Source: Pyrinomonadaceae bacterium (lineage in GTDB: Bacteria > Acidobacteriota > Blastocatellia > Pyrinomonadales > Pyrinomonadaceae). From it: a stretch of DNA of 64,000 nt. The notes beneath the pieces were generated by a model. The model did not search any database. It was not told the DNA's origin and saw nothing but the letters and a program-made list of their open reading frames with translations. This document shows, one piece after another, positions 4,925-64,000 of the stretch. The first letter of the stretch is position 1. The number at the start of each line of letters is the position of its first letter. Position numbers and translations under genes: made by a program. The stretch spans positions 2,995 through 66,994 of the forward strand of contig DAIMCP010000020.1 in the NCBI GenBank assembly GCA_036726305.1, read 5' to 3'.

Positions 4925-4998
4925 TCGAGGGCGCGATTAGGAATAAGGTGCGAGGACACTTGCGGCGAACTGAGTTGGCGAAGGCTGGCACAAGAGCC

Positions 4999-10300: not shown

Positions 10301-10365
10301 CCTTTCTCTGGGGGGCCACAGCGGTGACCATTGAGGTTATATCCATCCGACCATCATGCACGGGG

Positions 10366-31638: not shown

Positions 31639-34623
31639 TTGCTAAAAATGACTAATAGCCTACCAGGATTTCTATTACTCAGGTCAAAGAGAATTCTCGC
31701 TGCCGGCTTGGCGATCTTGCTGGCGGCGATGCCGGCTCTTGCGGGCCTTTCCATCAGCAACTCGAACGGCATTGTCATGACTGGCGCAGACGGCATTGTC
31801 ATGACCGGGGCCGACGGCATTGTGATGACTGGGGCGGACGGGTTCCTCGCTCTTGGGCCCAACGGCATAGTTATGACCGGGGCCGACGGGATCGTCATGA
31901 CCGGCGCCGACAATTTTTATTCGCCAAATAGTCTGCGAATGACTGGTGCTGCCGGCATAGTTATGACCGGGGCTGACGGGATTGTCATGACCGGGGCCGA
32001 TGGGATCGTTATGACCGGCGCCGACGGTGTTACTCATCAGGCCGATTCGGTGACCATTACCGAGGCCGACGGCATCGTGATGACGGGCGCCGATGGCATT
32101 GTGATGACGGGGGCCGACGGAATCCGGCGCACCGGCGCTGATGGGATTGTCATGACTGGCGCAGATGGTATCGTGATGACGGGAGCTGATGGCATCGTCA
32201 TGACCGGCGCTGATTCGCTACGCGCGTTGGGATCGGATGGAACGGTATATTCGATCCCCACCGATGGCCTCCGCTTTGGTGGGGTGACGGGTATCGTGAT
32301 GACAGGTGCCGATGGCATCGTCATGACTGGAGCCGATGGTATCGTGATGACCGGCGCTGATGGACTGTTGACAACGGGAATACCGGTTCAGAGCGGATTG
32401 AGAAGCTTGGATCCGGAACTTGCTGTGAAGTTAAACAGCCTGACTGACGACAGCAACATTAATGTTGTGCTTGTTTATCATCACCTCCCGACGGAGGCCG
32501 ATATCACCGACTTACAGGGGATTGGGATTGTCGGCGGTACTCGTTATCGCGCCTTGCCCTTGATTACCTTGACGGCAACCAAAAGCCAAATACTCGTTAT
32601 CTCACGGCTGCCCGCCGTCCGTTCAATTTATGGCACCCGTACATTGGAAGCCACCATTGAACCCGAAGTTCGCGCTGAGACGGGCGTTGATAGGGCCTGG
32701 AGGGATCAGTCAATTGCTCAACAGAACAGCGGACTTGGGGTGAGCGGCCGGGGAGTGGGCGTCGCGGTAATTGATACCGGGATCGACGCAATGCATGGAG
32801 ATTTGGCAAATCGGGTGGTGCAAAACGTGAAGCTGGCCGATACACAGAGTGCCAGCCCAGGTTTCAATTATCCCGTTAACGTGGAAAACCTCGCCGATAC
32901 CGATCAGGTTTACGGCCATGGAACATTCGTCGCAGGAGTGATTGCGGGCAGCGGTAGTCTTTCAGGCGGAAAGTATAGCGGCATAGCTCCAGGAGCGAAT
33001 ATTGTGGGCTTGGGCGCCGGTGACCTCAGTTTGGTATATGTTCTCGAAGGATTTGATTACCTGCTGGCTCATCCTGAGTTGGGAGTCCGTGTTGTTAATT
33101 GTAGTTTTTCGGCGGAAACGGTCTACGATACCAACGACCCAGTCAACGTCGCTACGCGAATGCTTACCGATCGCGGTATTAGCGTCGTTGTGTCGGCTGG
33201 AAATACCGGGTCCGGCATGCACACCTTGAATCCCTATGCCGTTGCCCCCTGGGTAATAAGCGTTGGGGCGACCGATACCCAGGCCAGACTTGCTAGCTTT
33301 TCTTCCCGGGGAGATTTTGCCAGCCCTTTGTTCCACCCCACCCTGGTCGCGCCAGGCGTCGCTGTGGTTAGCCTGCGCGGGTCGGGAATTGCAAATGTGA
33401 CGGGTGCAGAGGGCGTCGCCAACGCCGACACACAACGGTTAAGCGCGTCCGAGCTCCCCAACTATACAACGGCAAGCGGTACTAGTTTTTCTGCCCCCCA
33501 GGTGGCGGGTGCTATCGCCCTCATGCTTGAGGCCAACCCGCAGCTTACTCCGGCGAAGATCAAAGACATCCTGCAACAGACCGCAACGCCGCTGCCACCT
33601 TACTTCATGCATGAAGTGGGCGCGGGGATGTTGAACGTGCATGCAGCAGTACTGCAGGCGAGTTTTCCGTCACTCAAATTGGGAACCTGGCGCGGACTCG
33701 CCAATTGGGGTCAGGTGACATTCGTCAAGGACCCAATTCAGCAGTTTGTTGGCACCGTGCAACCCGGCGCACAAGCTGATGCTCAGCTAACGATTCCCAC
33801 CGGCGCCTTAACGGCATCACTTCAAGTCGCCTGGGGGCCGATGTGGAGCGCCAATGATCTGGGACTCTCCGCCTACGGCCCGGACGGAAATCTAAGTGCC
33901 CAGTCAAACAGGATCAACTTACCCGGGCTGACCGGCGATCGCGAACGCCTGGCACTAAAAGAGCCAGTCACCGGCCTTTGGCGCGCCACTATTAGAAACT
34001 CGCTTGGGGCTGCCGTAACTGCTCAGCCATTTGTCGGAACTCTGGAAGTTGGGCGTGCCAGTTACTCGCCGCTGAACGATGTTGTTGGCCAGAGTGCAGC
34101 GACGCGCTCCGATATCTATCAGAACATTCGCTCCCTGATGATGGCCCCAGCGGGAAAGAACTTTCGTCCGAATGCTGCCGCTTCGCGGGCCGATTTGGCG
34201 GCCGCGCTGGTAGCAGGGGCACGTGTGCCGCAATACATGCGCGGACAACAGAGTTATCAGGATGTTGCTGACGCGATTACCAGGTTGTTGGTCGATAGTG
34301 TTCAGGCGGCGCCAACCGGTCCGTTGTTCTACGACGTCGTGGGTACCAATAGATTCCGGCCCAACGAGGCGGTAAATCGTTTGACGGCCGCGGTAGCACT
34401 GGTAAGGGCTGCCGGATTGGCTTCTGAGGCTGAGACGAGAAGGAACGCCCCACTCGCTTTTCTTGATGCCTTGAGTATCCCTGCAGATCTGAGAGGCTAT
34501 GTGGCAGTCGCAGCTGAACGCGGGTTTATCTCGTCAGATACGTCATTTCATCCCCAGTTTTCGCTCACGCGTGCCGAGCTGGCACATGCGATGGTGGTCA
34601 CACTGACACTGGCAACCAACTGA
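31639..34623 (+). CDS. secreted S8 (subtilisin-family) serine peptidase with N-terminal octapeptide repeats and C-terminal SLH-like repeats
   Basis: Signal peptide (ILAAGLAILLAAMPALAG). Catalytic triad contexts 'VAVIDTGID', 'HGTFVAGVIAG' and 'GTSFSAPQVAGAIALM'. Three C-terminal 'F(R/H)P....(T/S)RA(D/E)LA.A(L/M)V' SLH-like units. Alternative start ATG at 31648. Confidence 0.85.
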   Translation: MLKMTNSLPGFLLLRSKRILAAGLAILLAAMPALAGLSISNSNGIVMTGADGIVMTGADGIVMTGADGFLALGPNGIVMTGADGIVMTGADNFYSPNSLRMTGAAGIVMTGADGIVMTGADGIVMTGADGVTHQADSVTITEADGIVMTGADGIVMTGADGIRRTGADGIVMTGADGIVMTGADGIVMTGADSLRALGSDGTVYSIPTDGLRFGGVTGIVMTGADGIVMTGADGIVMTGADGLLTTGIPVQSGLRSLDPELAVKLNSLTDDSNINVVLVYHHLPTEADITDLQGIGIVGGTRYRALPLITLTATKSQILVISRLPAVRSIYGTRTLEATIEPEVRAETGVDRAWRDQSIAQQNSGLGVSGRGVGVAVIDTGIDAMHGDLANRVVQNVKLADTQSASPGFNYPVNVENLADTDQVYGHGTFVAGVIAGSGSLSGGKYSGIAPGANIVGLGAGDLSLVYVLEGFDYLLAHPELGVRVVNCSFSAETVYDTNDPVNVATRMLTDRGISVVVSAGNTGSGMHTLNPYAVAPWVISVGATDTQARLASFSSRGDFASPLFHPTLVAPGVAVVSLRGSGIANVTGAEGVANADTQRLSASELPNYTTASGTSFSAPQVAGAIALMLEANPQLTPAKIKDILQQTATPLPPYFMHEVGAGMLNVHAAVLQASFPSLKLGTWRGLANWGQVTFVKDPIQQFVGTVQPGAQADAQLTIPTGALTASLQVAWGPMWSANDLGLSAYGPDGNLSAQSNRINLPGLTGDRERLALKEPVTGLWRATIRNSLGAAVTAQPFVGTLEVGRASYSPLNDVVGQSAATRSDIYQNIRSLMMAPAGKNFRPNAAASRADLAAALVAGARVPQYMRGQQSYQDVADAITRLLVDSVQAAPTGPLFYDVVGTNRFRPNEAVNRLTAAVALVRAAGLASEAETRRNAPLAFLDALSIPADLRGYVAVAAERGFISSDTSFHPQFSLTRAELAHAMVVTLTLATN
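31768..32361 (+). repeat. in-frame 24-nt tandem repeats encoding GIVMTGAD (16 perfect plus several degenerate units, in 6 blocks)
   Basis: Read directly from the DNA and the translation. The units differ at synonymous third positions (GGC/GGG/GGT/GGA, ATT/ATC/ATA, GTC/GTG/GTT, ACT/ACC/ACG, GCA/GCC/GCG/GCT, GAC/GAT). Confidence 0.9.
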
Positions 34624-47613: not shown

Positions 47614-47744
47614 CGTAACTGGCTAAGGCTCTGGCGTCAGCTCGACCTGTCAACAATCGCTTACGTTACACCGCGGCGTTGCGTCTAGTGGCCAATGTTT
47701 CATCTATGCAAAATGAGCACGGCAATTGTATAATGCCCGGACCC

Positions 47745-50700
47745 ATGAAACCGAGTCTCTTTCATCCAGCGGTAGCTAACTGGTTTGCGAAGCAGTTCCC
47801 AGGCGCTACGCCACCACAGGAACGGGCATGGCCAGCCATCAAGAACCGTGAGAACACGCTAATCGCGGCGCCGACCGGTTCCGGCAAGACGCTCGCGGCA
47901 TTTCTCGCGGCCATCGACGACCTGGTGCGGCTTGGCCTGGAAGATAAGCTCGAGGACACAACCCACGTCATTTACGTCTCGCCGCTCAAGGCTTTGAGCA
48001 ATGATATTCAGATCAACCTGCAAAAACCGCTTGAAGGAATTGAGCGCGAATTGCAGGCGTTGGGATTGCCGCCGGTAAACATTCGTACGCTGGTCCGGAC
48101 GGGTGATACCCCCGCAGCCGAACGCACGGCGATGACCAAGCGCCCGCCGCACATTTGTGTCACGACGCCGGAATCGCTTTTCATCCTTTTGACCAGCGAA
48201 GGCGGGCGTCGGATGTTGCGTACGGCGCGCACCCTGATTGTTGACGAAATACACGCCCTGGTGGGTGACAAGCGTGGTTCACACCTCGCCCTCTCGATTG
48301 AAAGGCTTGAGCATCTCGCCGCTCAGCATGAACTCGAAATGCAAAGCTCTCAGATCCAGAACCCCAGGCTTGAATTCCAACAACCCGCAGCCAACCTTCG
48401 ACATTCCCGTTTGGTGCGTATTGGACTATCAGCCACCCAGCGGCCCATCGAGGAAGTGGCCCGCTTTCTGGTTGGCACAGCCAATTTAAACAACGATGGA
48501 ATGCCCAACTGCACGATAGTTGACAGCGGTCATGTGCGCCGGCTCGATGTCGCAATTGAACTCCCTGAATCTCCTCTGCAGGCGGTAATGTCGGGCGAGG
48601 TCTGGGACGAAGTCTACGACCGTCTGGCCCAACTCATTCGCGAACACCACACAACTTTGATCTTCGTCAATACACGCCGGCTCGCAGAGCGAGTCGCGCG
48701 CCACCTCGGCGAGCGCATCGGCGACGAGAATATTGCCGCGCATCATGGCAGTCTCGCCCGTGAACAGCGTCTGGCTGCGGAGCAGCGCCTGAAAGCCGGT
48801 GAGTTGAGTGCGCTGGTAGCCACAGCCTCGCTGGAGTTAGGGATAGATATTGGGGACGTGAATCTGGTTTGCCAGCTCGCCTCGACGCGTTCGATAGCCA
48901 GCTTCCTGCAACGCGTGGGGCGCTCGAATCACACTGTCGAAGGGTTTCCGAAAGGCAGAATCTTTCCGCTCTCGCGCGATGAGCTGGTGGAATGTGCGGC
49001 TTTGATCGATTCTGTGCGCCGGGGAGAGTTAGATCAGGTGTCGATTCCGCAGCAACCGCTCGACATCCTCGCGCAGCAAGTCGTAGCTGCGGTCGCCGCC
49101 GAAGAATGGATTGAAGACGATCTCTTTGCGATGGTGCGAGGCGCCTATCCGTACCGGAATCTGGAGCGCAAAGACTTTGACGAAGTAATTCGCATGCTGG
49201 CCGAGGGGTTCGCGACCAAACGTGGCCGGCGGTCCGCATACGTGCATCATGACGCGGTAAATCATCGCTTGCGCGGCCGCCGCGGCGCCCGCCTCGCGGC
49301 AATCACCTCCGGGGGTGCGATTCCTGACACCGCTGACTATGCAGTGGTGCTCGAGCCGGGCGGTCTGGTCATCGGCAGCGTCAATGAAGATTTCGCCATC
49401 GAGAGTTTGCAGGGAGATATTTTTCAGCTGGGCAATACCTCCTGGCGCGTCTTGCGAGTCGAGCAGGGAAAAGTCCGGGTTGAGGATGCGCATGGCCAGC
49501 CGCCTTCGATTCCCTTCTGGTTGGGCGAAGCCCCGGCGCGCACGCATGAGCTTTCTGCGGCGGTCTCGCGTTTGCGCTCAGAAGTGGCCGAACGCGTTTC
49601 CGTCAGTAGCGCTGACTTAGATCTGCGGGTTGAGGCAAACGGAACAACAGTCGCGGCTGAGGCTCAATACCCCGAAGAAACAAAGTCCTCCATCGACACG
49701 ACTTCAAGTCTGCATTACCTGACGGACGAAGTTGGCATATCTCGCCCCGCAGCCGAACAGATTGTTGAATATCTCGCAGCATCGAAGATCGCTCTCGGCG
49801 TCATGCCGACACAGCAGGATATCGTGCTGGAACGCTTCTTTGACGATAGCGGCAGCATGCAATTGATCGTCCATGCTCCCTTTGGCAGTCGTTTGAATCG
49901 GGCCTGGGGTCTGGCTTTGCGCAAACGTTTTTGTCGCCAATTCAACTTTGAACTCCAGGCCGCGGCTACCGAAGACGCAATCATTTTATCGCTTGGTCCC
50001 ACACACAGCTTTCCGCTTGGCGATGTCTTTCACTATCTGAATTCCAAAACGGTCCGTGACCTGTTGTGTCAGGCATTGCTCGACGCTCCGATGTGGAACA
50101 TCCGCTGGCGCTGGAATGTGACGCGGGCCCTTGCGGTCCTGCGCCGTCGCGGCGGCAAAAAGATTCCCGCCCAGCTGCAGCGCATGAATGCCGAAGATCT
50201 GTTGACCGCGGTCTTTCCCGATCAGGTTGCCTGTGTCGAAAATCTTGGCGGCGGCCCACGCGAGATTCCCGAGCATCCCCTGGTTGCGCAAACTGTCAAA
50301 GATTGTCTGGAAGAGGCAATGGATATCGAAGGCCTCGAATCATTACTGCAATCAATCGAGCGTAATGAAAGAAATCTAATCGCGCGAGATATGGTCGAAG
50401 CATCGCCGCTTGCGGCTGAAATTTTGAACGCTCGTCCCTACGCTTTCCTGGACGACGCTCCGCTCGAGGAGCGTCGGACGCGCGCGGTGTTTCAGAGGCG
50501 CTGGCTGGATCCGGAAAAGGCGGCGGACATTGGCAGATTGGATCCTGCGGCAATCGAGCGTGTGCGGGAAGAAGTTTGGCCAGAGGCGCAGAATCCGGAT
50601 GAGCTGCATGACGCTCTGGTGGAGTTAGGATTCCTGACTGAGGCCGAAGGTGCAGAATGGCAAGAGTGGTTTGCCCAGCTGCAGGTCGACCGGCGAGCTG

Positions 50701-52418
50701 CTGTGCTCGTGACTGGGACCGAACCTGGGACCGAACCTGGGAGCGCAGGCATCCTGCCTGCCCCCTCGTCGAATGCCATTCAATCGGCGGCAGGCAGGAT
50801 GCCTGCGCTCCCAGGCAGGCTTTGGGTGGCAGCGGAACGCTTACCGCAACTACAGGCAATCTTCCCTTTCGCTTCCCTTTCCCCGCAGATTACCGCGCCG
50901 GAGAGCTACGCGCAAACAACCTGGTCTGGCGAAGACGCATTGGTTGAGATCGTACGTGGAAGGCTCGAAGGACTTGGTCCTGTTACGGCAGAAAGTCTGG
51001 CCATTTCACTTGGCTTGCCGTCCAGGGATATCGAGGCCGCCCTGCTCAAATTGGAAGCTGAGGGCTTCGTTATTCGCGGCAGCTTCTCAACCGGCGCAAG
51101 TGCTGTTGAATGGTGTGCGCGCCGTTTACTGGCGCGTATTCACAGTTACACGCTGAACCGACTACGGCAGGAGATAGAACCGGTTTCCAGCTCGGATTTC
51201 ATTCGCTTTCTGCTGGCCTGGCAAAAGGTTGCTCCCGATCACCAGATCGAAGGACCGGAGAGTCTGCGCGTCGTGCTTGAACAGCTGGAAGGATTTGAGG
51301 CCCCCGCAGCGGCCTGGGAGGGCGAATTGTTGCCCAGCCGGCTCATCGAATACGATCCCGTCTGGTTGGATGCACTATGTTTGTCGGGTGAAGTGATGTG
51401 GGCGCGCCTGACTCCGCCGGCGGCCCCCAAAAATGGTCCGGAAAGGTCCCGTGGATCGGGCCCGGTGCGCACAACGCCGATAGCGCTGATTCGACGTAAA
51501 AATCTGGCGGTTTGGAATTCTGTTTTTCCGCAACCTTGGCTGGAAGACATCAGATTTTCAAGCATCACAGAAGTTGTCTATAGCTATCTGCGCACCCGCG
51601 GCGCTTCTTTTTTCCATGACATTGTGGACAGTACCAAAATGCTGCGCGCCCAGGTGGAAGAGTCACTGGCTGAGCTGGTGGCTTACGGCCTGATTACTTC
51701 TGACAGCTTTACCGGCTTGCGCGCATTACTGACCCCGGCAAACCGCAAGACGCGCGCTGCAGCTCGGCACAAACATCGCCAACCGGTCTACGACATGGCC
51801 AGCGCCGGTCGCTGGTCGCTCCTGTCGAGAAACGCAGGAATTGAGTCTTCCGAAAATCCTGCAAGCGTTCCGCCAGCCAAACCCTCCGCAACTACTCCCC
51901 GGTGGCAAACCTTTGCAGCGGTTCCAGCGGAAACAAAAGAAGCCGTCGCGCGCATCCTGTTGCAACGTTACGGCGTCGTCTTCAAGCGCTTGCTGGAACG
52001 CGAAGGAATTGTGCTTCCCTGGCGCGATTTGCTGCGCGTTTATCATCGCTTGGAGGCGCGCGGGGAGATTCGAGGTGGCCGCTTTGTCGCAGGCATTTCG
52101 GGGGAACAATTCGCACTTCCTGACGCGGTCGGGTTGGTCAGATCTATCCGGCGCGCCCCGGAAAAGGGAATCATGATTTCGATTAGCGCCGCTGATCCAC
52201 TGAACCTTGCCGGATTGATCACGCCGGGGCCGCGGGTTACTGCTCATACTGCAAATCGCGTCCTTTACAGTGATGGCGCTCCAGTCGCTGCACTGGAGTC
52301 GGGCGAGACGCGCTTTCTGGTTGAAATGAGTCGTACCATGGAGTGGCAGGCCAAGGCTGCCTTGCTGCGAAAGGCCACGCCCCCGGTGCTGCGTTCATAC
52401 CTCAGCCGGCGCGCCTGA
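47745..52418 (+). CDS. lhr: large ATP-dependent helicase Lhr (DEAH box, full-length type)
   Basis: '[10 protein letters not shown]' (motif I), 'LIVDEIHAL' (DExH), 'SATQ', '[10 protein letters not shown]' and '[10 protein letters not shown]'. Long C-terminal extension. The ATG at 47745 is preferred within ORF 47679..52418. Confidence 0.85.
50739..50812. repeat. perfect 24-bp inverted repeat (26-nt spacer) embedded in frame in lhr
   Basis: GGGAGCGCAGGCATCCTGCCTGCC at 50739..50762 and its exact reverse complement at 50789..50812. Preceded by a tandem 12-nt duplication GGGACCGAACCT x2 (50715..50738). Confidence 0.9.
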
Positions 52419-56782: not shown

Positions 56783-56812
56783 TTGACACATACGGTTACG
56801 CAGACTTAGCCT
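56783..56812 (+). promoter_or_regulatory. candidate promoter upstream of the C11 peptidase gene (TTGACA-N18-TAGCCT)
   Basis: A perfect -35 hexamer is read directly. The -10 keeps only the TAnnnT positions. Lies about 150 nt upstream of the ATG at 56963. Confidence 0.25.
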
Positions 56813-56962: not shown

Positions 56963-58714
56963 ATGGATCAAAAAGAATTTGACCGTCCCAACAAACCTAC
57001 GGAGTGGACGCTAATGTTTTATTTCGCCAGCGACAATCCACTGGCGCCGGGAGTTATCTCGCAACTGAAAGCACTTAAGAACGCGGGGTATCATCGCGGC
57101 GTCAATGTTCTGGCGTATTTTGATCCTGAGGTTCGGGAAACACCGACGCACATCTTCGATGTTAACGCCATCGAGAAGATAGAGAGTGAGAAGCCACAAA
57201 TCGGTTTTGCAAATGATCCTTTCGTCAGGAACTTGATGTACGACAAATTATGGGGAGACGAGCTTTCCCGTGACGGCAAGACCCCAATCAGGCAGTTGCT
57301 GATCCAGCAACTGGAAAAGAGGAACTTTAAATTCAATCCACGGAAGCCTCCAGCGTCAAACGACGACGGAAATGACGATCATGGCCGGGCAAGTGATGAC
57401 AGGAGAACGCGGCCTCAATCGGGCCCGAAAGAGTCATTAGCCATGTTTTTGAACTTCTGTGCTGAGAAGTATCCGGCCGAGCACTATATGCTCTTCATTA
57501 TTGGACACGGGCAGATCGTGGGCGATGATGTGTTTCTCTATGACGAGCACGCAGCCAAACATGCGGTGACTTTGACGGAACTGGGCGAGGAGCTCAAGAA
57601 GTTCAAAGCTCATGAAAATGTTCGCAAGGCGGAGTTTGATTTAGTGAGTTTTCATAGCTGCTCAATGAGCAGCGTGGAGATCACTTCGGAACTGAAGGGG
57701 ACCGCAAAATTCATGTTGGCTTCACAAGGCACAGCGTTTGTGGGTAGTTGGCCCTATCTCTCGATATTGATCAGAATCTTCAATGATTTTGGGGAGCCTT
57801 CCCTGGATATCAAAGAAATGATCAAAAAGATGTTCTTCTACGTTCGCCACAATAGTACAGACTTTGTATTGGCCGGCTACTCGTTCGATCTTTGCCTTTG
57901 TGAGTTGGGAGAAGGCGGAGTGACGGCTGTTGAGAAGGCAATCAAAGATTTGGCCGCAGAGTTGAAAAGAGGTTTGGCTGAAGGAACTTCGCCGATTATC
58001 GCGGATGCCATTTTGCTGGCGCACTGGAGATCGCAGAGTTATTGGCAAGAGAATTACACTGATGTCTATGACTTCTGCTTTTGCCTTGAGCACTACTGTA
58101 ATGAGCTGGGAAATAACGTCGGGAATATGGGATCTATTCAAACAGCTGCTGGTAAGGTAATGGACGCGCTGATAGCCGAGAGACCTGGAGACGACAAGTA
58201 CGGTGAACGGTTAGTAACTATAGCGCAATTCGTCGGTCCGGGTTCCCAATATTCCCATGGCTTATCGGTTTTCTTTCCCTGGTCTGAGCCTCCGCAGGAC
58301 CGGCCGATCATGTCCCAATACCCAGGTTACGCTTTTCAAGAGAAAACCGACTGGTTTGGTTTTCTCAAAGAATATTTCAGGAGCACCATGCGCAAGAGTC
58401 GCAGGGAGGAGTCTGATCCGAGAATTCCTGCCCCGCACCAGAGTCCTGCTGAGGCACTGCGCGAAGACATGGCTGCAATCATGTTTGGCGCCGCCGGCGG
58501 CGCGAGCGTCCCCGGAGCCCTCGACGATGACGACCCGCCACCAGTTAAGACTCGACCGACAGATCCCATGGGTAAAGTCAGTCCACGCGATCCGATGGGG
58601 GGTGACTGTGCTTGTGGATCCATAAAGAACTTTCCACACGACACTCGTCCGCGCCTGTTACGAGCAAGAAACGCACAGTTAGATAAGGATGGCCCAACCT
58701 TCTTCAGCTTTTAG
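56963..58714 (+). CDS. clostripain-like (peptidase family C11, clan CD) cysteine peptidase, cytoplasmic
   Basis: GAAGGAG RBS. 'WTLMFYFASDNPL', catalytic-His context 'MLFIIGHGQ' and catalytic-Cys context 'LVSFHSCSMSSVE...ASQG', in the order typical of C11. No signal peptide. Confidence 0.7.
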   Translation: MDQKEFDRPNKPTEWTLMFYFASDNPLAPGVISQLKALKNAGYHRGVNVLAYFDPEVRETPTHIFDVNAIEKIESEKPQIGFANDPFVRNLMYDKLWGDELSRDGKTPIRQLLIQQLEKRNFKFNPRKPPASNDDGNDDHGRASDDRRTRPQSGPKESLAMFLNFCAEKYPAEHYMLFIIGHGQIVGDDVFLYDEHAAKHAVTLTELGEELKKFKAHENVRKAEFDLVSFHSCSMSSVEITSELKGTAKFMLASQGTAFVGSWPYLSILIRIFNDFGEPSLDIKEMIKKMFFYVRHNSTDFVLAGYSFDLCLCELGEGGVTAVEKAIKDLAAELKRGLAEGTSPIIADAILLAHWRSQSYWQENYTDVYDFCFCLEHYCNELGNNVGNMGSIQTAAGKVMDALIAERPGDDKYGERLVTIAQFVGPGSQYSHGLSVFFPWSEPPQDRPIMSQYPGYAFQEKTDWFGFLKEYFRSTMRKSRREESDPRIPAPHQSPAEALREDMAAIMFGAAGGASVPGALDDDDPPPVKTRPTDPMGKVSPRDPMGGDCACGSIKNFPHDTRPRLLRARNAQLDKDGPTFFSF

Positions 58715-58730
58715 TGAGGTCCGGTAGGAA

Positions 58731-58760
58731 AAGGGGCGGCATGACCGCCCTTTTTCTTTC
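58731..58760 (+). terminator. strong rho-independent terminator between the C11 and CHAT genes
   Basis: AAGGGGCGG-CATGA-CCGCCCTT followed by TTTCTTTC, 17 nt after the C11 stop codon. Confidence 0.75.
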
Positions 58761-58787: not shown

Positions 58788-61625
58788 ATGCAGTACTCCA
58801 CATTAATTCTTGTGGCACTCTTCCCATTTCTTATTCCAGTGGCTCTGGCGCAGCAGCAACCCGTGGGCGCCACGGAAGATACTACTCGACACGCTAACGA
58901 TCTACTCAAACTTAGTGCCCAACAGAATTTCGAAAACCATGCGGTAGCACTGCAAACTGCACAACAGGCGCTAGTACTATGGCAAAGTGTGGGAGATAAA
59001 GGCGGAATCGCTCGCACTTATGACCAGATTGGTCGCTGTTACCTGGTGCAGAGCAAATTGCCAGACGCGACCAAAAACTACGAGCAGGCGCTCCAAATCT
59101 GGCAGGAGCTGAATAACAACAAACAGGTTGCTTCAACCTTAATAATGCTTGGATTTATTGAAGTCCGTAAGGGCGAATGGTCTGCTGCTATTTCCCTCCT
59201 TACCCAAGCCCAGAGTTTGCTGGAAGAAAATGACGCGAGCCAGCTTGGTCAAATCTCCGCAGCCTTAGCTGATATTTTCAATGAAAGCGGGTTACCGAAA
59301 GACGGGCTCATTCACACGCGCCGCGCACTCGAATACTACCGACGCACGCCTGACGAACGCGATGACAAGCGCATGATCCTCGATATCGGTAAGAGCTATT
59401 TTCTGCTGGGGAAGTACAGCGAAGCCTTGGCATATATCCAACAAGCGCTCGACAGCTTTGCCCCGGACAACCTTGATTCAGCCGACTGTCACGAATCCCT
59501 CGGTCGAGTCTACAGCGCCACCGGCCAACTCGATCTGGCGCTCGAACACTTGCAAGCTGCCATCCCCGTCTATGAACGAATCGGAAATCCCGCGGAAGCA
59601 GCGCGCGCCCGTGCTCTGGTCGGACAGGTCTATTATCAAATGGGACAGTTGGAGCGGGCGCGGCACACTTACCAGCAGGCGCTCTCAGCCTTTCAACGCC
59701 TGTCCGATCAGCTGAACGAATCGGCGCTTCATTACGCGCTTGGTCGCCTGGAATTGAAGCGTGGTAACTACGACGAGGCGGAACAGTATTTGCGCCATTC
59801 CATCGATGAAACAGAAAACATCCGCCGGATTCCTGCCAGCCGCGACCTAACGGCCGCCTTTTCTGCCACCGTGCACGACCGATATGCAGGTTATATCGAG
59901 TGCCTGATGCACAAGCATCAGATCAATCCCTCAAAAGGTTTTGACGTCCTCGCTCTCGAGACCAGTGAATTGGCGCGGGCGCGCTCGCTTGCCGAGTTTT
60001 TGCGGGATACGCAAATCACTGCGGTTGGAAACCTCGAGCCAGAGCTGGCAGCTCAGGAAAAAACAATACGGCAATCACAGCGGATTAAGGAGGACTATCG
60101 GGTTGCGTTGTTAGCGAGGAATTACAAGAAGGAGGAACTCGACGCTCTGGATGCGGATTTGCAGCGACTCGAAAAAGAGTACAAGCAAGTAAGCGACACC
60201 ATCCGAGAACGTTATCCCTCGTTTGAACAGATTACGCGACCTACGGCGCTAACGCTCTCTCAAATCCAGGCGCAGGTGCTGCGGGACGATCAATCCATCC
60301 TGCTCGAATACAGCCTGGGTTTGGACCGCAGTTTCCTTTGGGCCGTGACGCGTACGCAGGTTTCGAGTTTTGAGCTGCCGGCACGCGCGGAAATTGAAGA
60401 CCTTGCGCTTCAAGTCTACGGATCGCTTACGGCGTATCAGCCCAAGTCGGGCGAAACGCCGGCTCAGCGGAACGAGCGGGCCGCTTTATCTCTCACGCAG
60501 CTGCCCGGCCAACTCGCCGGGCTGAGCGAGATTTTGTTGCGGCCGGTCGCCGCCCAACTCGGAACGAAACGTTTGATAATCGTGGCAGACGGAGCCCTGC
60601 AATACATTCCCTTTCAAGCCCTTACCTTACGAACTCCAGGACGGGCCGGGCAAGGTTATGATACAGGTCGGGCTCTGCTTTGGGATCACGAAATCGTCAA
60701 CGAACCTTCAGCGTCAACCCTAGCCCTGTTGATAAGCGGCTCTGCGCAGCGAGCACCCGCCAGCGGCACGGTGGCTGTACTGGCCGACCCTGTTTTCGCA
60801 GCGGATGATTCGCGCGTCAGGACGCAAGACCCTGGTTCAACTTTGGTCCCGTTAAAACCGCTGCACAATGGCGAACTCCTGGCGGCATTGCGGGATATGG
60901 ATGAAGATCCTGCAGATCAGAATATTCCGCGCTTGCTGGAATCACGAGTAGAAGCCGATGCCATTATGTCCATTGTCCCCTGGCGCACGGGATTCAGAGC
61001 GACTGACTTTAATGCCAATCGCGAAATCGCTGCGAGGAATGATTTGGGGCAATATCGAATTGTGCATTTTGCGACCCACGCTTTCCTAAATAACAAACAC
61101 CCACAGTTTTCAGGAATTGTGCTTTCGCTGGTGGATCAAAATGGACAGCCACAGGATGGCTTCCTGCGCTTACAGGACATCTACAACCTGAAACTCCCCG
61201 TTGATCTGGTAGTACTCAGCGCCTGCCAAACCGGGCTGGGCAAAGACGTCAAGGGCGAGGGCTTGATCGGGTTGACGCGCGGTTTTATGTATGCGGGGGC
61301 TTCGGGAGTAGTGGCGTCGCTGTGGAAAGTAGATGACGAAGCGACCGCGGCATTGATGAAACATTTTTACGCCGGGATGTTTGAGCAGGGCCTGTCCCCG
61401 GCGGCGGCGCTGCGTCAAGCGCAGCTTGCGGTGCGGCGCGAGAAACGCTGGCAGGAGCCCTATTACTGGGCTGGGTTCGTGATCCAGGGGCAATATGCCA
61501 ACCAGAGACCGGCTGGTTTTCAACTAACTCCCGCGGTAAAGGTCACAGCTCTGGTTGGCGCGACGATGATTTTGTTCTTATCGGGATTTTTTGTGTTCTG
61601 GCGCAGACGTAGACGGAATCTTTAG
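58788..61625 (+). CDS. exported TPR-repeat CHAT-domain (caspase-fold) protease with C-terminal membrane anchor
   Basis: Signal peptide (LILVALFPFLIPVALAQQ). About 350 aa of TPR. CHAT core with 'IVHFATHAF' (His) and 'DLVVLSACQTG' (Cys), then 'YWAGFVIQG'. C-terminal TM (ALVGATMILFLSGFFVFW) followed by RRRRRNL. Confidence 0.85.
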   Translation: MQYSTLILVALFPFLIPVALAQQQPVGATEDTTRHANDLLKLSAQQNFENHAVALQTAQQALVLWQSVGDKGGIARTYDQIGRCYLVQSKLPDATKNYEQALQIWQELNNNKQVASTLIMLGFIEVRKGEWSAAISLLTQAQSLLEENDASQLGQISAALADIFNESGLPKDGLIHTRRALEYYRRTPDERDDKRMILDIGKSYFLLGKYSEALAYIQQALDSFAPDNLDSADCHESLGRVYSATGQLDLALEHLQAAIPVYERIGNPAEAARARALVGQVYYQMGQLERARHTYQQALSAFQRLSDQLNESALHYALGRLELKRGNYDEAEQYLRHSIDETENIRRIPASRDLTAAFSATVHDRYAGYIECLMHKHQINPSKGFDVLALETSELARARSLAEFLRDTQITAVGNLEPELAAQEKTIRQSQRIKEDYRVALLARNYKKEELDALDADLQRLEKEYKQVSDTIRERYPSFEQITRPTALTLSQIQAQVLRDDQSILLEYSLGLDRSFLWAVTRTQVSSFELPARAEIEDLALQVYGSLTAYQPKSGETPAQRNERAALSLTQLPGQLAGLSEILLRPVAAQLGTKRLIIVADGALQYIPFQALTLRTPGRAGQGYDTGRALLWDHEIVNEPSASTLALLISGSAQRAPASGTVAVLADPVFAADDSRVRTQDPGSTLVPLKPLHNGELLAALRDMDEDPADQNIPRLLESRVEADAIMSIVPWRTGFRATDFNANREIAARNDLGQYRIVHFATHAFLNNKHPQFSGIVLSLVDQNGQPQDGFLRLQDIYNLKLPVDLVVLSACQTGLGKDVKGEGLIGLTRGFMYAGASGVVASLWKVDDEATAALMKHFYAGMFEQGLSPAAALRQAQLAVRREKRWQEPYYWAGFVIQGQYANQRPAGFQLTPAVKVTALVGATMILFLSGFFVFWRRRRRNL

Positions 61626-61698
61626 GTACAATGCCGCGGACACAACTAACGCGGCTTCCGGTCTCGCTCGAAGGCTATACCTTCGCCAGAACGCCCCC

Positions 61699-62250
61699 AT
61701 GAAGAAAGATTGGATCCTAACCCAGGAACTGTTCGACGAACTCTTGTCGTGGCTCAACGCTGATCGCGAACAAGCCGGACACGACTATGAAGCGATCCGC
61801 CGGCGACTCATCAAGCTCTTTACCTGCCGAAACTGTTACGAATCTGAGGATCTGGCCGACGAGACCATTAATCGCGTGGCCAATAAGATCGCCGAGATCA
61901 AGGACCACTTTGAGGGACCGCGGGCACCCTATTTTTACGCGGTAGCCAACAAGGTTCATCTCGAATACCTGAGACGAAAGCCCGAGCCCTTCTTGCCTCC
62001 TTTACGTCCGTCAGAAGACATTGAGCTGGAATATGCTTGTCTTGAGCAGTGCATGGAAAGGCAGACACCCTCGAATCGTAAGCTCGTGCTTGAATATTAC
62101 CAGGGCGAGAAAAAAGCGAAGATTGATCATCGCCGGAGTTTGGCCGAAGGGTATGGAATAGCGCTAAATGCCCTGCGAATCAGGGCCCATCGAATCCGTG
62201 CCTCGCTCCAGGAATGCGTGGAGAACTGCCTAAGTCAGGCGACAGCATGA
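61699..62250 (+). CDS. ECF-type sigma-70 family RNA polymerase sigma factor
   Basis: 183 aa from the ATG at 61699. Region-2-like 'EDLADETINRV' and region-4 HTH 'LAEGYGIALNALRIRAHRIRASL'. Divergent from the consensus, so the family call is moderate. Confidence 0.65.
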   Translation: MKKDWILTQELFDELLSWLNADREQAGHDYEAIRRRLIKLFTCRNCYESEDLADETINRVANKIAEIKDHFEGPRAPYFYAVANKVHLEYLRRKPEPFLPPLRPSEDIELEYACLEQCMERQTPSNRKLVLEYYQGEKKAKIDHRRSLAEGYGIALNALRIRAHRIRASLQECVENCLSQATA

Positions 62251-62342
62251 AATACCCCGAAGGAATCCGGCATTAAGTATAGGGACTGTTTCGCGGAAAG
62301 TGGCCACCCTTGAAAGCGGAAAACAAACAGCAGGAATCAATC

Positions 62343-63137
62343 ATGCTTTACCTCCTGGGACTATTGCGGCCCGAGGACTCGACCTCTGTGGAAGAGCGGC
62401 TGGTGGCGGACAGCGAATTCTACGACGAAGTGCTGATTGCTGAAGACGAGTTGATTGACCAGTACCTGGCCGGTGAGCTTTCGGAGGTTGAGCGCGAGAG
62501 ATTCGAAAACCACTTCTTGCTCGTTCCTGAGCGGCAAGGCAAAATGCGTTTCGGACGGGCTTTGAACAGGTATATCAGTGCCGCGGACCCATTGCCGGAC
62601 GAGAATCCGGTTACCGAGGATGTAGCCGACGAGACTCGCCCGGTCCCCAAACCGCCACCGAAGCCCTGGTACTCAATATTCCTCCCCAGCCAAAATCCGG
62701 TCCTCTCGTATTCTTTGGCTGCCGCTGTCGTGATAATTGTCGCCGGTATATCCTGGTTGGCTTGGCAGAACTTTAGAAATCCGCCTCCAACCTCTGGCGA
62801 ATTGCTCGCCGTGACGCTTAGGGCAGGAACCACACGCGGCGACGGGGATGTTCAACGGATTTCAATTCCACCTGGCACGAGCACGGTGCAACTGCGGCTC
62901 TCCCTAACGAAAAGTGACTACCCTAAGTACCGCGCCGTTGTATTGGGAGAGTCTCGATCGCCGGTTTTGATTATTAACAATCTGCAACCGCAGATTGCGT
63001 CGGGTGCACTCTTTGTCGGGATGAATGCTCCTGCCCACTCCCTGCCTCCAGGTGATTACCAGGTAAAGCTCAGCGGTCAACTCTCGAATGGCGAGTTTGA
63101 AGACCTGTCCAGCTATCGCTTCCGCGTCGGTCGTTAA
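62343..63137 (+). CDS. single-pass membrane protein, putative anti-sigma factor (non-ZAS)
   Basis: Immediately follows the sigma gene. N-terminal 'YLLGLL.PEDSTSVEERL..D.EFYDEV..AEDELIDQYL.GEL...ERERFENHFL'. One TM (LSYSLAAAVVIIVAGISWLAW). About 115-aa extracytoplasmic domain. No HxxxCxxC motif. Confidence 0.5.
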   Translation: MLYLLGLLRPEDSTSVEERLVADSEFYDEVLIAEDELIDQYLAGELSEVERERFENHFLLVPERQGKMRFGRALNRYISAADPLPDENPVTEDVADETRPVPKPPPKPWYSIFLPSQNPVLSYSLAAAVVIIVAGISWLAWQNFRNPPPTSGELLAVTLRAGTTRGDGDVQRISIPPGTSTVQLRLSLTKSDYPKYRAVVLGESRSPVLIINNLQPQIASGALFVGMNAPAHSLPPGDYQVKLSGQLSNGEFEDLSSYRFRVGR

Positions 63138-63140
63138 GTG

Positions 63141-63162
63141 TCTGGCCTTCCGGTCAGATTTT
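63141..63162 (+). terminator. candidate rho-independent terminator closing the CHAT/sigma/anti-sigma unit
   Basis: TCTGGCC-TTCC-GGTCAGA followed by TTTT, 4 nt after the stop at 63137. Confidence 0.5.
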
Positions 63163-63448
63163 CCCCTTATCCCGGTAACCATGAGTGCTTCTTGAGATTG
63201 GTTGACATTAAGTAAGAAGACCAGCGGGAGAAGCGCACGTCACCCCTTGAGATCGATATCGAATTCTTTGATATCGGCGGGACGTTGGGGGATCTTGACG
63301 CGCCGGGGAGATTTCCCAATTCAGCAGTCCTTATATGTATCAATTCACTAACCGATAGCGTACCAAGGAATCATTGAAGGAGCATTGAAAAGCGCCCAAG
63401 TGAGGTTCCTGTCAAATTTTTGATCTCAACAATCCTAAGTGCATTTGA

Positions 63449-64000
63449 ACCGTTGTTGGGCCTGCCAACAGATATTTCCTCGGAGCGCTCGCTCCCAAGA
63501 ATAACTCTCAATGGCACGGGCCCTGGGATTGTGCCGAGTTTGTTTCCTGGTGCGTTTTTCAGGCCGGCGCAAGTCTGTACGGCTGCGATTCAAACAACGG
63601 AAACCCCGCGGGCGCGGATGCGTACACCGGATATTGGGCGAGAGATGCCGAGCAACGTGGAAGGAGAATAAGTCTGGCCGAAGCGGCCCGAACTCCAGGC
63701 GCGGCGATCTTGGGAATCCCGCGCGGTTCGGCGAATGGACACATAGTCCTGTCTGATGGAGCGGGTGGAACAATTGAAGCCATGTCGCCGGCTCAACGCG
63801 TGAGGCGCCACACCATAACTAACAGAAGATGGGACATGGGAATCCTGGTTCCTGGCATATCGTATGAAGTAAGCCAAGGTACTAACATCGCTGAATCACC
63901 CACTGTTTACCGGATTACGACGCCCTTCATGCGAGGCGATGCGGTTCAGAGGATTCAACAAGCACTATTGGAAGTCGGAATCGATCCAGGGCCTGTAGAT
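63449..64000 (+). CDS. NlpC/P60-CHAP-like cysteine peptidase with peptidoglycan-binding domain (3' end outside window; 5' start unresolved)
   Basis: My own translation of the frame not listed in the track, which is open to the window end. It gives '..RYFLGALAPKNNSQWHGPWDCAEFVSWCVFQAG...GHIVLSDGAGGTIEA...' and then 'MRGDAVQRIQQALLEVGIDPGPVD' (PG_binding_1-like). No ATG/GTG/TTG lies between the upstream stop (63446) and the catalytic Cys. Confidence 0.5.

Follow-up and report, generated by a model that had tools for sequence, protein, structure and literature searches.

A conserved four-gene module of two predicted cysteine proteases and an ECF-type sigma/anti-sigma pair in a soil acidobacterium, possibly a Myxococcus DdvA-DdvS switch in split form

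[quoted passage not shown] It lies in a window (the whole stretch of DNA that was analysed, 64,000 nucleotides) of a member of the Pyrinomonadaceae, for which the ORF list gives three same-strand ORFs (58788-61625, 61699-62250 and 62310/62343-63137; all features below are on the + strand). The initial annotation had described these as three genes bounded by terminators. The genes are real, and the window calls are matched by those made independently on identical metagenome contigs, but the boundaries did not hold, as comparative data also place the upstream gene at 56963-58714 inside the functional unit. The gene content, observed directly, thus points to a conserved four-gene module in this soil acidobacterium, consisting of a putative C11 protease, a TPR-CHAT protein, an ECF-type sigma factor and an anti-sigma factor.

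The TPR-CHAT gene (58788..61625) encodes a membrane-tethered protease of 945 aa that is predicted to be periplasmic (Pfam CHAT 2e-66, TPR_12 6e-38). It starts with a signal peptide (aa 1-21, 58788-58850; hydrophobic at aa 3-21 and ending in ...VALA before QQQ), followed by an array with many TPR matches (about aa 50-345, 58935-59822), the CHAT domain (aa 579-902, 60522-61493) with the dyad His764 and Cys813, a TM segment (aa 919-938, 61542-61601) and a cytoplasmic tail, RRRRRNL (61602-61622). Homologues keep the signal at the N-terminus as well as the TM and R/K tail at the C-terminus, and with them the predicted topology in which TPR array and CHAT domain face the periplasm, as was originally proposed. 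The dyad is intact and does not vary across 74 aligned sequences, 61 of them split and 13 fused (72 homologues, with identities to the window protein of about 25-63%, plus the latter counted once per set as reference), which argues for retained catalysis. It also bears on the idea that TPR-CHAT serves the anti-sigma ectodomain only as a co-sensor or scaffold, without catalysis, with the usual site-1 and site-2 proteases, encoded elsewhere, freeing the sigma factor. TPR arrays are protein-binding modules, and in Myxococcus DdvA the dyad adopts a resting geometry and can be mutated without effect in unperturbed cells (PMC11506125), but in view of the invariant dyad we consider a purely structural role highly improbable.

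The sigma gene (61699..62250) encodes a divergent, Cys-rich protein of 183 aa, with sigma2 at about aa 9-93, sigma4 at about aa 105-182, twin CX3C motifs in sigma4 (C114/C118 and C173/C177) and a CxxC motif (C43/C46). Its ECF-type identity proved weaker than first stated, since the protein has no match in Pfam and its NCBIfam matches are all sub-threshold (TIGR02989, 1e-8; type III-E CRISPR-associated sigma, 2e-5; sigma70-ECF, 3e-5). The assignment as ECF-type rests on the modelled structure: the AlphaFold model (pLDDT 72) has only ECF sigma factors among its top 21 PDB matches. A database search yielded 3150 homologues, assigned to Acidobacteria/Pyrinomonadaceae where the source gives a name.

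The last gene (62310..63137) encodes a single-pass anti-sigma factor that starts at TTG 62310 (275 aa) or ATG 62343 (264 aa), the former being favoured because about 11 residues precede the YLLG motif in homologues. Its AF2 model (pLDDT 83; 264-aa numbering) comprises a four-helix N-domain (aa 10-80), a cytoplasmic linker that is disordered over about 25 aa (aa 85-108), a TM segment (aa 119-145, 62697-62777) and an Ig/FN3-like beta-sandwich ectodomain of about 115 aa (aa 153-263, 62799-63131) that matches folds such as CopC and FN3. The model is in line with the topology assigned initially (cytoplasmic N-domain, one TM, ectodomain). The reported lack of the HxxxCxxC ZAS motif also stands, as the protein contains no Cys, even though it scores above the cutoff for Pfam zf-HC2 (25.5 bits, 1.4e-5; cutoff 22.2); the match to NCBIfam 'antisigma' (1.6e-10, 41.4 bits) falls below the 100-bit cutoff.

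A profile of the sigma factor was used to collect 80 species-level genomes/loci, nearly all from Blastocatellia/Pyrinomonadaceae, of which 7 were uninformative. The initial annotation had proposed a survey of CHAT-sigma-anti-sigma synteny, and the outcome was strongly positive: a CHAT gene adjoins the sigma gene in 67 of the 73 informative loci and is not adjacent in 6. The arrangement is collinear (CHAT followed by sigma) in 45 loci, convergent (sigma and anti-sigma facing CHAT and C11) in 12, and in 10 the sigma gene is followed by a gene for a fused protein of about 1200 aa. Second, paralogous sigma factors (36-45% identity) occur in 13 loci and mostly adjoin anti-sigma and/or CHAT genes too, and one genome has two full modules on either side of a thymidine kinase (TK) gene. 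This TK flank is common to 35 loci. As most loci belong to one class and many occupy the same chromosomal position by TK/NTPase, much of the synteny is inherited and not independently evolved; one clade of sigma factors lacks a neighbouring CHAT gene.

The CHAT protein and the anti-sigma factor are linked by the fusions, which were observed directly: sister loci join the anti-sigma domain and TM to TPR-CHAT in one polypeptide, in the same order (anti-sigma domain-TM-TPR-CHAT) as in DdvA. The N-domain of the fused proteins has the pattern YLLG...EDELID..YL...FE.HFL..PER of the split anti-sigma factor, the TM is at about aa 115-140, Pfam CHAT matches all 12 of them (best 1e-67), and a fused-protein profile matches PDB 8rot/8rw5, a 991-aa 'CHAT domain-containing protein' with the length of DdvA. 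In an unbootstrapped neighbour-joining tree of the sigma factors, the partners of fused and split forms interleave in at least four places. Given the synteny, the fusions and the conserved predicted periplasmic topology, membership of the CHAT protein in the sigma/anti-sigma switch, which had been put forward as a hypothesis, is well supported by these comparisons.

The unit extends to the gene directly upstream of CHAT (56963..58714), which encodes a clostripain-family (Peptidase_C11) cysteine protease of 583 aa (Pfam PF03415, 1.1e-21) with catalytic residues His182 and Cys233, invariant in 49 of 49 sequences. The protein is predicted to be cytoplasmic because a signal peptide and a TM are absent; the window protein has no hydrophobic segment, and among some 48 homologues none has an N-terminal one and a few have a borderline internal stretch. 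We observed directly that the C11 gene goes with the CHAT tail: it lies immediately upstream of 48 of the 51 CHAT genes with a C-terminal TM/poly-Arg tail (49 of 52 with the borderline locus L063 included), but precedes none of the 4 tail-less and none of the 11 fused CHAT genes. In the three exceptions a signal-less papain-like protease (Peptidase_C70/C39_2) takes its place. By this distribution, the predicted cytoplasmic C11 protease is an obligate partner of the tail-bearing CHAT type.

The initial annotation had placed terminators with a T-run on both sides of the three genes. The upstream one is a strong, intrinsic-terminator-like hairpin in the gap between C11 and CHAT (58726..58758, T-rich tract to 58770; 14-bp stem, dG about -22.1 kcal/mol, z -3.6). 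The downstream one, after the anti-sigma gene (63140..63159, to 63163 with UUUU; 8-bp stem with a G.U pair), is marginal (dG -11.1, z -2.0, only four U) and was not reported in a terminator scan of the window. The upstream hairpin is lineage-specific, the C11-CHAT gap often being short elsewhere (in 16 of 47 loci the genes overlap or are at most 16 nt apart; median about 41 nt), and is probably an attenuator and not an operon boundary. The comparative data include C11 in the functional unit despite the hairpin in this genome. The presence of so strong a hairpin between C11 and CHAT counts against the mechanism proposed below.

C11 has a strong AGGAGG-type ribosome-binding site before its start codon, and about 150 nt 5' of this codon we found a putative promoter, TTGACA-N18-TAGCCT (56783..56812), as a single match in the window (0.03 expected); TTGACA-N17/18-(A/T)TAGCC occurs 125-196 nt 5' of C11 in 10 related loci. 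A second element, TTTAGGTACAAT (61621..61632, 67 nt 5' of the sigma ATG), consists of the CHAT stop codon and a -10-like TACAAT. It occurs once in the window and is kept in the majority of collinear loci, where conservation extends to non-coding bases 3' of the stop codon, and the TACAAT may serve as an internal promoter for the sigma and anti-sigma genes. A search for an ECF-type or common promoter motif that would define a regulon or autoregulation found none. The apparently separate promoters for C11 (sigma-70-like) and sigma, the hairpin, the sigma clade with no CHAT neighbour and the near restriction of the loci to Blastocatellia, 35 of them with the TK flank, would also fit a reading in which C11-CHAT works independently as an envelope protease cassette, or belongs to the output of the sigma regulon, plays no part in sigma activation and is adjacent by inherited gene order. 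We regard this as unlikely, since 10-12 loci, whose partner sigma factors are of the same family, fuse anti-sigma domain and TM with TPR-CHAT, since the linkage persists where the genes are inverted (the convergent form), where paralogues have been duplicated and where the sigma factors have diverged to as little as 36% identity, and since DdvA provides a precedent (PMC11506125).

Our best reading, of which we are about half convinced, is that of a proteolytic sigma switch which resembles DdvA but is split and has a protease on either side of the membrane. The four-helix cytoplasmic domain of the anti-sigma factor would keep the ECF-type sigma factor at the membrane, and the exported TPR-CHAT protein, tethered by its C-terminal TM, would be the periplasmic sensor and protease that upon a signal engages and cuts the anti-sigma ectodomain or juxtamembrane region (a site-1-like step). 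C11 would work from the cytoplasmic side, its most likely target being the disordered linker or the N-domain, and complete sigma release. We infer each cleavage event, its substrate, the order of the steps, the signal and the regulon. In the sister loci, anti-sigma domain, TM and TPR-CHAT form one polypeptide, as in DdvA, and the cytoplasmic protease gene is absent. The role of C11, tied genetically by its distribution to the C-terminal TM and poly-Arg cytoplasmic tail of CHAT, is the weakest step, CHAT and C11 being predicted in different compartments and the tail having only about 7 residues.

The tight correlation between protease gene and tail could also mean that the C-terminal TM and poly-Arg form a sorting or processing signal, with the adjacent cysteine protease releasing or maturing CHAT and sigma control being indirect. 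Clostripain-family enzymes cleave after Arg, the tail is RRRRR, and it weakly matches LPXTG and PEP-CTERM models. These matches cover only the generic TM and basic part, however, and no LPXTG, PEP or other signature motif was found before the TM; moreover, sorting enzymes are to our knowledge membrane or extracytoplasmic proteins, whereas C11 has neither TM nor signal, and at the three loci where a C70/C39-like protease, not Arg-specific, replaces C11 the tail is unchanged. This makes a sorting signal very unlikely.

In the canonical case of regulated intramembrane proteolysis, an anti-sigma factor such as RseA is cut by DegS and then by RseP (see the summary in PMC11506125). The split switch that we favour resembles this system in that a single-pass anti-sigma factor would hold the sigma factor by its cytoplasmic domain and would need to lose its ectodomain for release, but the candidate for the site-1 step is a dedicated caspase-fold protease encoded alongside, and not a serine protease, and RseP and Clp may be replaced or supplemented by the cytoplasmic cysteine protease of the module. 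A bioinformatic link between an ECF sigma factor and a CHAT protein exists for the ECF54 group, whose gene context includes carboxypeptidase, subtilase and CHAT proteins and which was described as having no anti-sigma factor (PMC8999054), unlike the module studied here.

CHAT-to-sigma links are also known from two CRISPR systems. In the type III-E Craspase, Csx29 (TPR-CHAT) cleaves Csx30, which holds RpoE/CASP-sigma (PMC10028731), and in type III-B of Haliangium a cascade runs from SAVED-CHAT via PCaspase to PCc-sigma/PCi (bioRxiv 10.1101/2023.06.23.546230). Like Craspase, our module links a TPR-CHAT protease genetically to an ECF-like sigma factor, with a weak match to the NCBIfam type III-E sigma model, and to a presumed sigma-binding inhibitor, the proteolysis of which is here proposed to free the sigma factor; like Haliangium, it encodes two clan-CD cysteine proteases with a sigma factor. 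These parallels, together with the dyads kept in both proteases, would suit a caspase-like defence or cell-death cascade in which CHAT activates C11, as SAVED-CHAT activates PCaspase, and C11 degrades cellular proteins, the sigma factor being a transcriptional side arm. Such a cascade seems quite unlikely, as CHAT is predicted in the periplasm and C11 in the cytoplasm, which makes direct cutting of C11 by CHAT topologically improbable, as the window has no CRISPR array and the ORFs scanned include no cas or CBASS genes, as PADLOC gives only generic TPR models and a marginal DrmD match, and as the module occupies a conserved core-genome position and not a variable island. Craspase is furthermore cytoplasmic, RNA-guided and Cas7-11-bound, whereas our CHAT protein is predicted to be periplasmic, with a membrane anti-sigma factor as inhibitor; the second protease is C14 in Haliangium and C11 here, with neither a SAVED domain nor a cyclic-nucleotide signal.

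The initial annotation could name no characterised example, but DdvA-DdvS of Myxococcus is a characterised analogue, as the fused sister loci share the one-polypeptide architecture of DdvA. DdvA-like proteins have been reported only in Myxococcota and one Comamonas, and in DdvA the TPR-CHAT part, which is periplasmic, blocks RseP and is a proposed site-1 protease (PMC11506125). Both systems combine an ECF-type sigma factor, a single-pass anti-sigma factor and a TPR-CHAT with an intact His/Cys dyad on the (here predicted) periplasmic side, and in both the proposed logic is that CHAT is sensor and site-1 protease. Direct sequence matches between the window sigma and DdvS, or between the window CHAT and the DdvA CHAT domain, were not found, only the TPR region aligning. 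DdvA has a CHCC site whereas the window anti-sigma factor has no zinc ligands, a CBASS or CRISPR regulon is not found near the window module, and the host phylum is Acidobacteriota. We read the module, at about even odds, as envelope-to-transcription signalling of Blastocatellia through a split form of the DdvA-DdvS type switch. Unlike in DdvA, anti-sigma factor and TPR-CHAT are separate proteins, the CHAT protein carries a signal peptide of its own and ends in a TM with poly-Arg tail, and a predicted cytoplasmic C11 protease is added as obligate partner. With this split layout, the idea that a protease triggers the sigma factor becomes testable with separate proteins.

The plus strand between 56.9 and 63.2 kb holds four genes, with the same gene calls on identical metagenome contigs: a Peptidase_C11 (clostripain-family) protein of 583 aa (56963-58714; Pfam Peptidase_C11), a TPR-CHAT protein of 945 aa (58788-61625; Pfam CHAT and many TPR matches), a sigma-like protein of 183 aa (61699-62250; an ORF with sub-threshold NCBIfam matches) and an anti-sigma-like membrane protein of 275 or 264 aa (62310 or 62343 to 63137; Pfam zf-HC2). 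The initial annotation had described the last three as a terminator-bounded unit. That observation is real and largely right, but the boundaries of the unit need correction, since the C11 gene upstream is a fourth component. The upstream hairpin (58726-58758; 14-bp stem, dG -22 kcal/mol, z -3.6, T-rich tail) is convincing as a terminator-like structure, whereas the hairpin that follows the anti-sigma gene (63140-63159 plus UUUU; dG -11, z -2.0) was missed by the terminator scan and is marginal as a terminator. The description as terminator-bounded thus holds only by half.

The neighbouring genes that were scanned are housekeeping genes, and no Rfam families or tRNAs were found at 55.5-64 kb. 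The ~700 nt (63138-63840) that separate the anti-sigma gene from a PG_binding_1 gene have no gene called on the identical contigs and neither an Rfam match nor a tRNA; the PG_binding_1 gene runs past the window end. The remaining window resembles ordinary chromosome, with genes (at 14-8469, 10324-12810, 27831-31328 and 47679-52418) for TamB-like and Omp85/POTRA proteins, for a class A penicillin-binding protein, for an AAA-TPR-BTAD regulator and for an Lhr-type helicase. The ORF at 31639-34623 codes for a subtilase (Peptidase_S8) that has an SLH domain at its C-terminus; tandem 24-nt repeats near its N-terminus (31756-32373) encode an octapeptide close to TGADGIVM, and the gene for the AAA-TPR-BTAD regulator lies directly upstream.

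The CHAT domain (Pfam CHAT, 2e-66, aa 579-902) follows many TPR matches. A hydropathy scan found an N-terminal signal at aa 3-21, ending in VALA before QQQ, and a C-terminal TM segment followed by RRRRRNL. On the basis of the signal peptide and of the C-terminal TM segment with its positive-inside tail, the CHAT domain is predicted to be periplasmic. All of 61 split and 13 fused sequences (the window protein is counted in each set) retain the catalytic residues His764 and Cys813, an invariance that disfavours a purely scaffolding role of the domain. Reading the tail as a C-terminal sorting signal (LPXTG or PEP-CTERM) fails as well: only the TM and basic part resembles the models (LPXTG_anchor aligns at model positions 13-33 only, and PEP_CTERM gives an E of 0.11), no signature motif precedes the TM segment here or is conserved there among homologues, and the protease is not a membrane protein. 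A third architecture, whose sole hydrophobic segment or anchor is N-terminal and which ends in ...YYWAGFxLQGEW(R/N) in place of a C-terminal TM segment or tail, occurs in four loci around sigma homologues (L039:14580-18176, L043:14222-17923, L060:6390-9908 and L041:359-4072). These genes have no upstream C11 gene (for L041, the short contig does not allow a judgement), and downstream of all of them lie a family sigma gene, which in L039 and L043 is a second paralogue, and a gene for an anti-sigma-like protein.

The sigma-like protein has no match in Pfam, and its NCBIfam matches stay below threshold (TIGR02937, 23.8 bits against a cutoff of 42.9; TIGR02989, 34.9 against 124.6; likewise sigma70-ECF and a type III-E CRISPR-associated sigma model); PF08281 is present in a few homologues. 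Its AF2 model (pLDDT 72) folds into two helical domains, all of the 21 best Foldseek matches in the PDB are ECF sigmas (SigE, SigH, SigL, SigW, sigmaE, AlgU and BldN) and its sigma4 domain superposes on that of SigL (3hug) with a TM of 0.7. The predicted composition of sigma2 and sigma4 only is that of group IV, and because of the modelled fold and the PDB matches we accept the protein as a divergent ECF-type sigma factor despite its failure at the curated HMM cutoffs. Two CX3C motifs in sigma4 (C114/C118 and C173/C177) are conserved almost without exception in 92 family members, among them paralogues of 36-45% identity, and a CxxC in sigma2 (C43/C46) is found in ~77-89% of the members. The sole two sequences without C114 (in L053 and L061) lack C177 too, which suggests that these residues may be paired in a disulfide or a metal site.

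The anti-sigma protein matches Pfam zf-HC2 (1.4e-5, 25.5 bits against a cutoff of 22.2). Its AF2 model (mean pLDDT 83) consists of four N-terminal helices (aa 10-80, pLDDT above 90) that correspond to the helical anti-sigma domain of ZAS proteins, a disordered segment (85-108), one TM helix (119-145) and a beta-sandwich (153-263) that is modelled with confidence and resembles Ig/FN3/CopC-like folds. The hydropathy scan also gave a single TM segment, and none in the C11 and sigma proteins, so that the anti-sigma topology proposed before is upheld. So is the missing ZAS motif: the protein contains no cysteine, the H-x3-C-x2-C zinc ligands are therefore absent, and no Cys or His stands in the conserved columns of a 47-sequence alignment. 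An ECF-type sigma factor with conserved cysteine pairs is thus combined with an anti-sigma that has none.

The sigma protein has 3150 detectable relatives in the protein collection, whose named sources are Acidobacteria/Pyrinomonadaceae. A sigma profile (A1) built from 21 relatives yielded 80 loci in species-representative genomes, almost all of them metagenome-assembled genomes of Pyrinomonadaceae/Blastocatellia, and the neighbourhoods were classified by searching their ORF calls with the four window proteins. The resulting counts, which do not represent independent events since 35 loci share a thymidine kinase (TK) flank and many are therefore orthologous positions, were 45 loci with CHAT and sigma (and anti-sigma) genes collinear as in the window, 12 with sigma and anti-sigma genes facing a convergent C11-CHAT pair, 10 with sigma followed by a single fused protein of ~1200 aa, 6 without an adjacent CHAT gene and 7 too short for judging. 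The synteny of CHAT, sigma and anti-sigma genes that had been anticipated is thus found in the collinear, convergent and fused loci. Four of the 6 loci without an adjacent CHAT gene have a C11-CHAT pair 4-5 kb away, beside a second sigma/anti-sigma pair, and an anti-sigma-like gene lies directly 3' of sigma in essentially all loci with downstream sequence. A second sigma paralogue (36-45% identity) is present in 13 loci, mostly adjoining anti-sigma and/or CHAT genes, and on one contig two complete modules flank the TK gene. The linkage is conserved across rearrangement and paralogy. Beyond the four genes, the only conserved neighbour is the downstream TK/NTPase gene, which marks a shared chromosomal position and not a function; the upstream neighbours (Lhr, YCII, DUF427 and a zinc-ribbon protein) are not conserved across loci. 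Outside their own clade, the window C11 and CHAT proteins have their nearest relatives in convergent modules (45-51% identity; L029, L071, L081 and L064), and the window sigma and anti-sigma are nearest to collinear modules, whose C11 is only 23-29% identical to that of the window. These identities suggest that C11-CHAT and sigma-anti-sigma cassettes may have been shuffled.

The C11 protein is a clear family member (PF03415, 1.1e-21, 78 bits against a cutoff of 25.8) with a His-Gly...Cys dyad (H182 and C233) that is invariant in 49 sequences. Clostripain and PmC11 are secreted enzymes that bear signal peptides. In contrast, no N-terminal hydrophobic segment, signal peptide or membrane anchor was found in the window C11 or in ~48 homologues, whose start positions are fixed by strong AGGAGG-type ribosome-binding sites, with start codons a few residues before the first conserved strand. 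The gene order is always C11 followed by CHAT, in collinear and convergent modules alike, with a median gap of ~41 nt (16 nt or less, or overlapping, in 16 of 47). A C11 gene lies immediately upstream of 48 of the 51 CHAT genes that encode a C-terminal TM segment plus R/K tail (49 of 52 when L063, with a borderline tail, is counted), of none of the 4 split CHAT genes without a tail and of none of the 11 in which CHAT is fused to the anti-sigma domain. The C-terminal anchor and tail of CHAT are thus coupled with the gene for a protease on the predicted cytoplasmic side of the membrane. In the three exceptions with a tail (L012:2002-3233, L033:4898-6198 and L066:4981-6542), the place upstream of CHAT is taken by genes for a papain-like protease without a signal and for an uncharacterised protein of ~200-320 aa. 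The proteases match Peptidase_C70 in L033 and L066 (up to 1.5e-11) and Peptidase_C39_2 in all three (below its cutoff in L012). This looks like a non-orthologous replacement of C11, which argues that a cytoplasmic cysteine protease is itself a required part. Clostripain-family enzymes prefer Arg at P1 (MEROPS), and trimming of the Arg tail of CHAT by C11 is an alternative role; as the loci with a C70/C39 replacement keep the same tail, docking or transduction is favoured over Arg-specific processing.

The CHAT stop codon together with the bases after it reads CTTTAGGTACAAT in most collinear loci, a conserved stretch (61621-61632, unique in the window) that gives a -10-like TACAAT ~65 nt before the sigma ATG. 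A second site, TTGACA-N17/18-TAGCCT (56783-56812 in the window), precedes C11 by 125-196 nt here and in 10 relatives; the motif searches returned it in 12 sequences, and the other 36 C11 upstream regions shared no motif above shuffled controls. Both sites look like housekeeping-type promoters. Searches for bipartite and k-mer motifs 5' of C11 and sigma returned solely sigma-70-like boxes and no ECF-type AAC...CGT motif. The putative 5' leader of the sigma gene (61633-61698; dG -23, z -2.1) contains two hairpins, GCCGCG...CGCGGC and CGAAGG-CUAUA-CCUUCG, with similar ones visible in the closest relatives (L005 and L006). Separate promoters, together with sampling from a single lineage, are what one would expect if the proteases formed an independent cassette kept nearby by descent, but such a cassette leaves the fusions unexplained.

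The fused proteins of ~1200 aa start with the N-domain of the window anti-sigma (YLLGxL...EDELIDxYL...FExHFLxTPER), followed by a TM segment at about residue 115-140, and end with the CHAT domain, without a C-terminal TM segment. All 12 that were aligned match Pfam CHAT (best 1e-67) and TPR families, and alignments of the window CHAT protein with several of them cover its periplasmic part, beginning as early as about aa 23-54 and reaching about aa 904 (24-30% identity). Anti-sigma domain, TM segment, TPR array and CHAT domain thus form one polypeptide in 10 related loci and two further paralogues, and are split over two genes in the window (58788-61625 and 62310-63137). In a neighbour-joining tree of 92 sigmas, made without bootstrap, partners of fused and convergent split proteins interleave in at least four places, which suggests that the two formats may have been switched repeatedly. 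The fusions are the strongest evidence for a joint function of TPR-CHAT and anti-sigma, and with the other comparative evidence they support the central idea of the initial annotation, in which CHAT is part of a sigma/anti-sigma switch.

Computation yielded the parts of the module with intact active sites and with their predicted sides of the membrane, and we consider it probable that the four genes are functionally coupled. In the scheme that we propose, the anti-sigma would sequester the sigma factor, and the tethered periplasmic TPR-CHAT protein would sense a signal, probably a protein, via its TPR array and cut or unmask the anti-sigma outside, as proposed for the anti-sigma DdvA of Myxococcus (PMC11506125). 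The cytoplasmic protease, coupled via the CHAT TM segment and tail, would complete the job inside, with the disordered anti-sigma linker as an obvious candidate site. These specific cleavages are tentative, somewhat short of an even chance, and the overall description of the module as a split, two-protease, DdvA-like sigma switch, abundant in soil Blastocatellia, seems to us evenly balanced. Rather unlikely is a further-reaching version, in which a two-compartment relay replaces canonical regulated intramembrane proteolysis and runs from CHAT through the TM segment and poly-Arg tail to a docked C11 that cuts the anti-sigma. Here the periplasmic TPR-CHAT would sense a protein signal, the docked cytoplasmic clan-CD protease would be C11 (or C70 in some lineages), the cut on the cytoplasmic side would free a redox- or metal-sensitive twin-CX3C ECF sigma, and fused DdvA-like proteins and split ones would serve one and the same purpose interchangeably.

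The gene content would also fit a defence-type cascade from CHAT to a second caspase, comparable to the SAVED-CHAT/PCaspase/PCc-sigma system of Haliangium (bioRxiv 10.1101/2023.06.23.546230). However, CHAT and C11 are in opposite predicted compartments, PADLOC returned only generic TPR models and a marginal DrmD match for the four module proteins, the 64 kb window contains neither a CRISPR array nor cas-like large ORFs, and the location is in the core genome. The type III-B SAVED-CHAT cascade of that study is a looser analogy to the proposed sigma switch, as is the type III-E Craspase (Csx29-Csx30-RpoE; PMC10028731), whose association with Cas7-11/gRAMP and a CRISPR array is absent here. Among ECF groups, ECF54 is reported to have CHAT proteins in its gene context and to lack an anti-sigma (PMC8999054); CHAT does not appear in the main text of the ECF re-classification paper, and in the literature collection searched we found no paper joining clostripain, a CHAT domain and a sigma factor. 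The tightly linked cytoplasmic cysteine protease is unexpected, and it points to caspase-fold proteases that act on either face of the membrane.

Among known systems, DdvA-DdvS of Myxococcus (PMC11506125) comes closest, and the earlier statement that no characterised example could be named needs correcting, as this switch is an analogue. The likeness lies in the proposed mode of working, but the window genes do not belong to that family. The window TPR-CHAT protein has the DdvA-type periplasmic part with a canonical His-Cys dyad, as judged from its predicted topology and conserved residues. Compared with DdvA, anti-sigma and CHAT are separate, the zinc site is missing, an additional protease is encoded, no defence island adjoins the genes, and homology of the window genes is undetectable beyond the TPR region. 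The profile of the fused family matched PDB 8rot/8rw5 (8rot_B, 991 aa, 4e-11) in the TPR region only; this 'CHAT domain-containing protein' has the same length as DdvA. No PDB sequence match linked the sigma or the CHAT domain to DdvS, DdvA, Csx29 or separase, the matches being to TPRs only. The fused relatives have the domain architecture of DdvA and extend such proteins to Acidobacteriota. DdvA-like proteins were reported only in Myxococcota and one Comamonas, from a search that demanded a zinc anti-sigma domain (PMC11506125), which the acidobacterial fused proteins lack. DdvA-like anti-sigmas are hereby extended to a second phylum, whose members abound in soil. In the DdvA study, the periplasmic CHAT domain was proposed as the site-1 protease of its own anti-sigma (PMC11506125); with protease and substrate in a single chain and no signal known, the proposal could not be tested there. 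In this acidobacterial family, protease and substrate are separate and fused and split versions exist side by side, so that cleavage can be assayed directly in trans; the main value of the module lies in revealing a cytoplasmic protease partner and in making the hypothesis of CHAT as a site-1 protease testable in this way.
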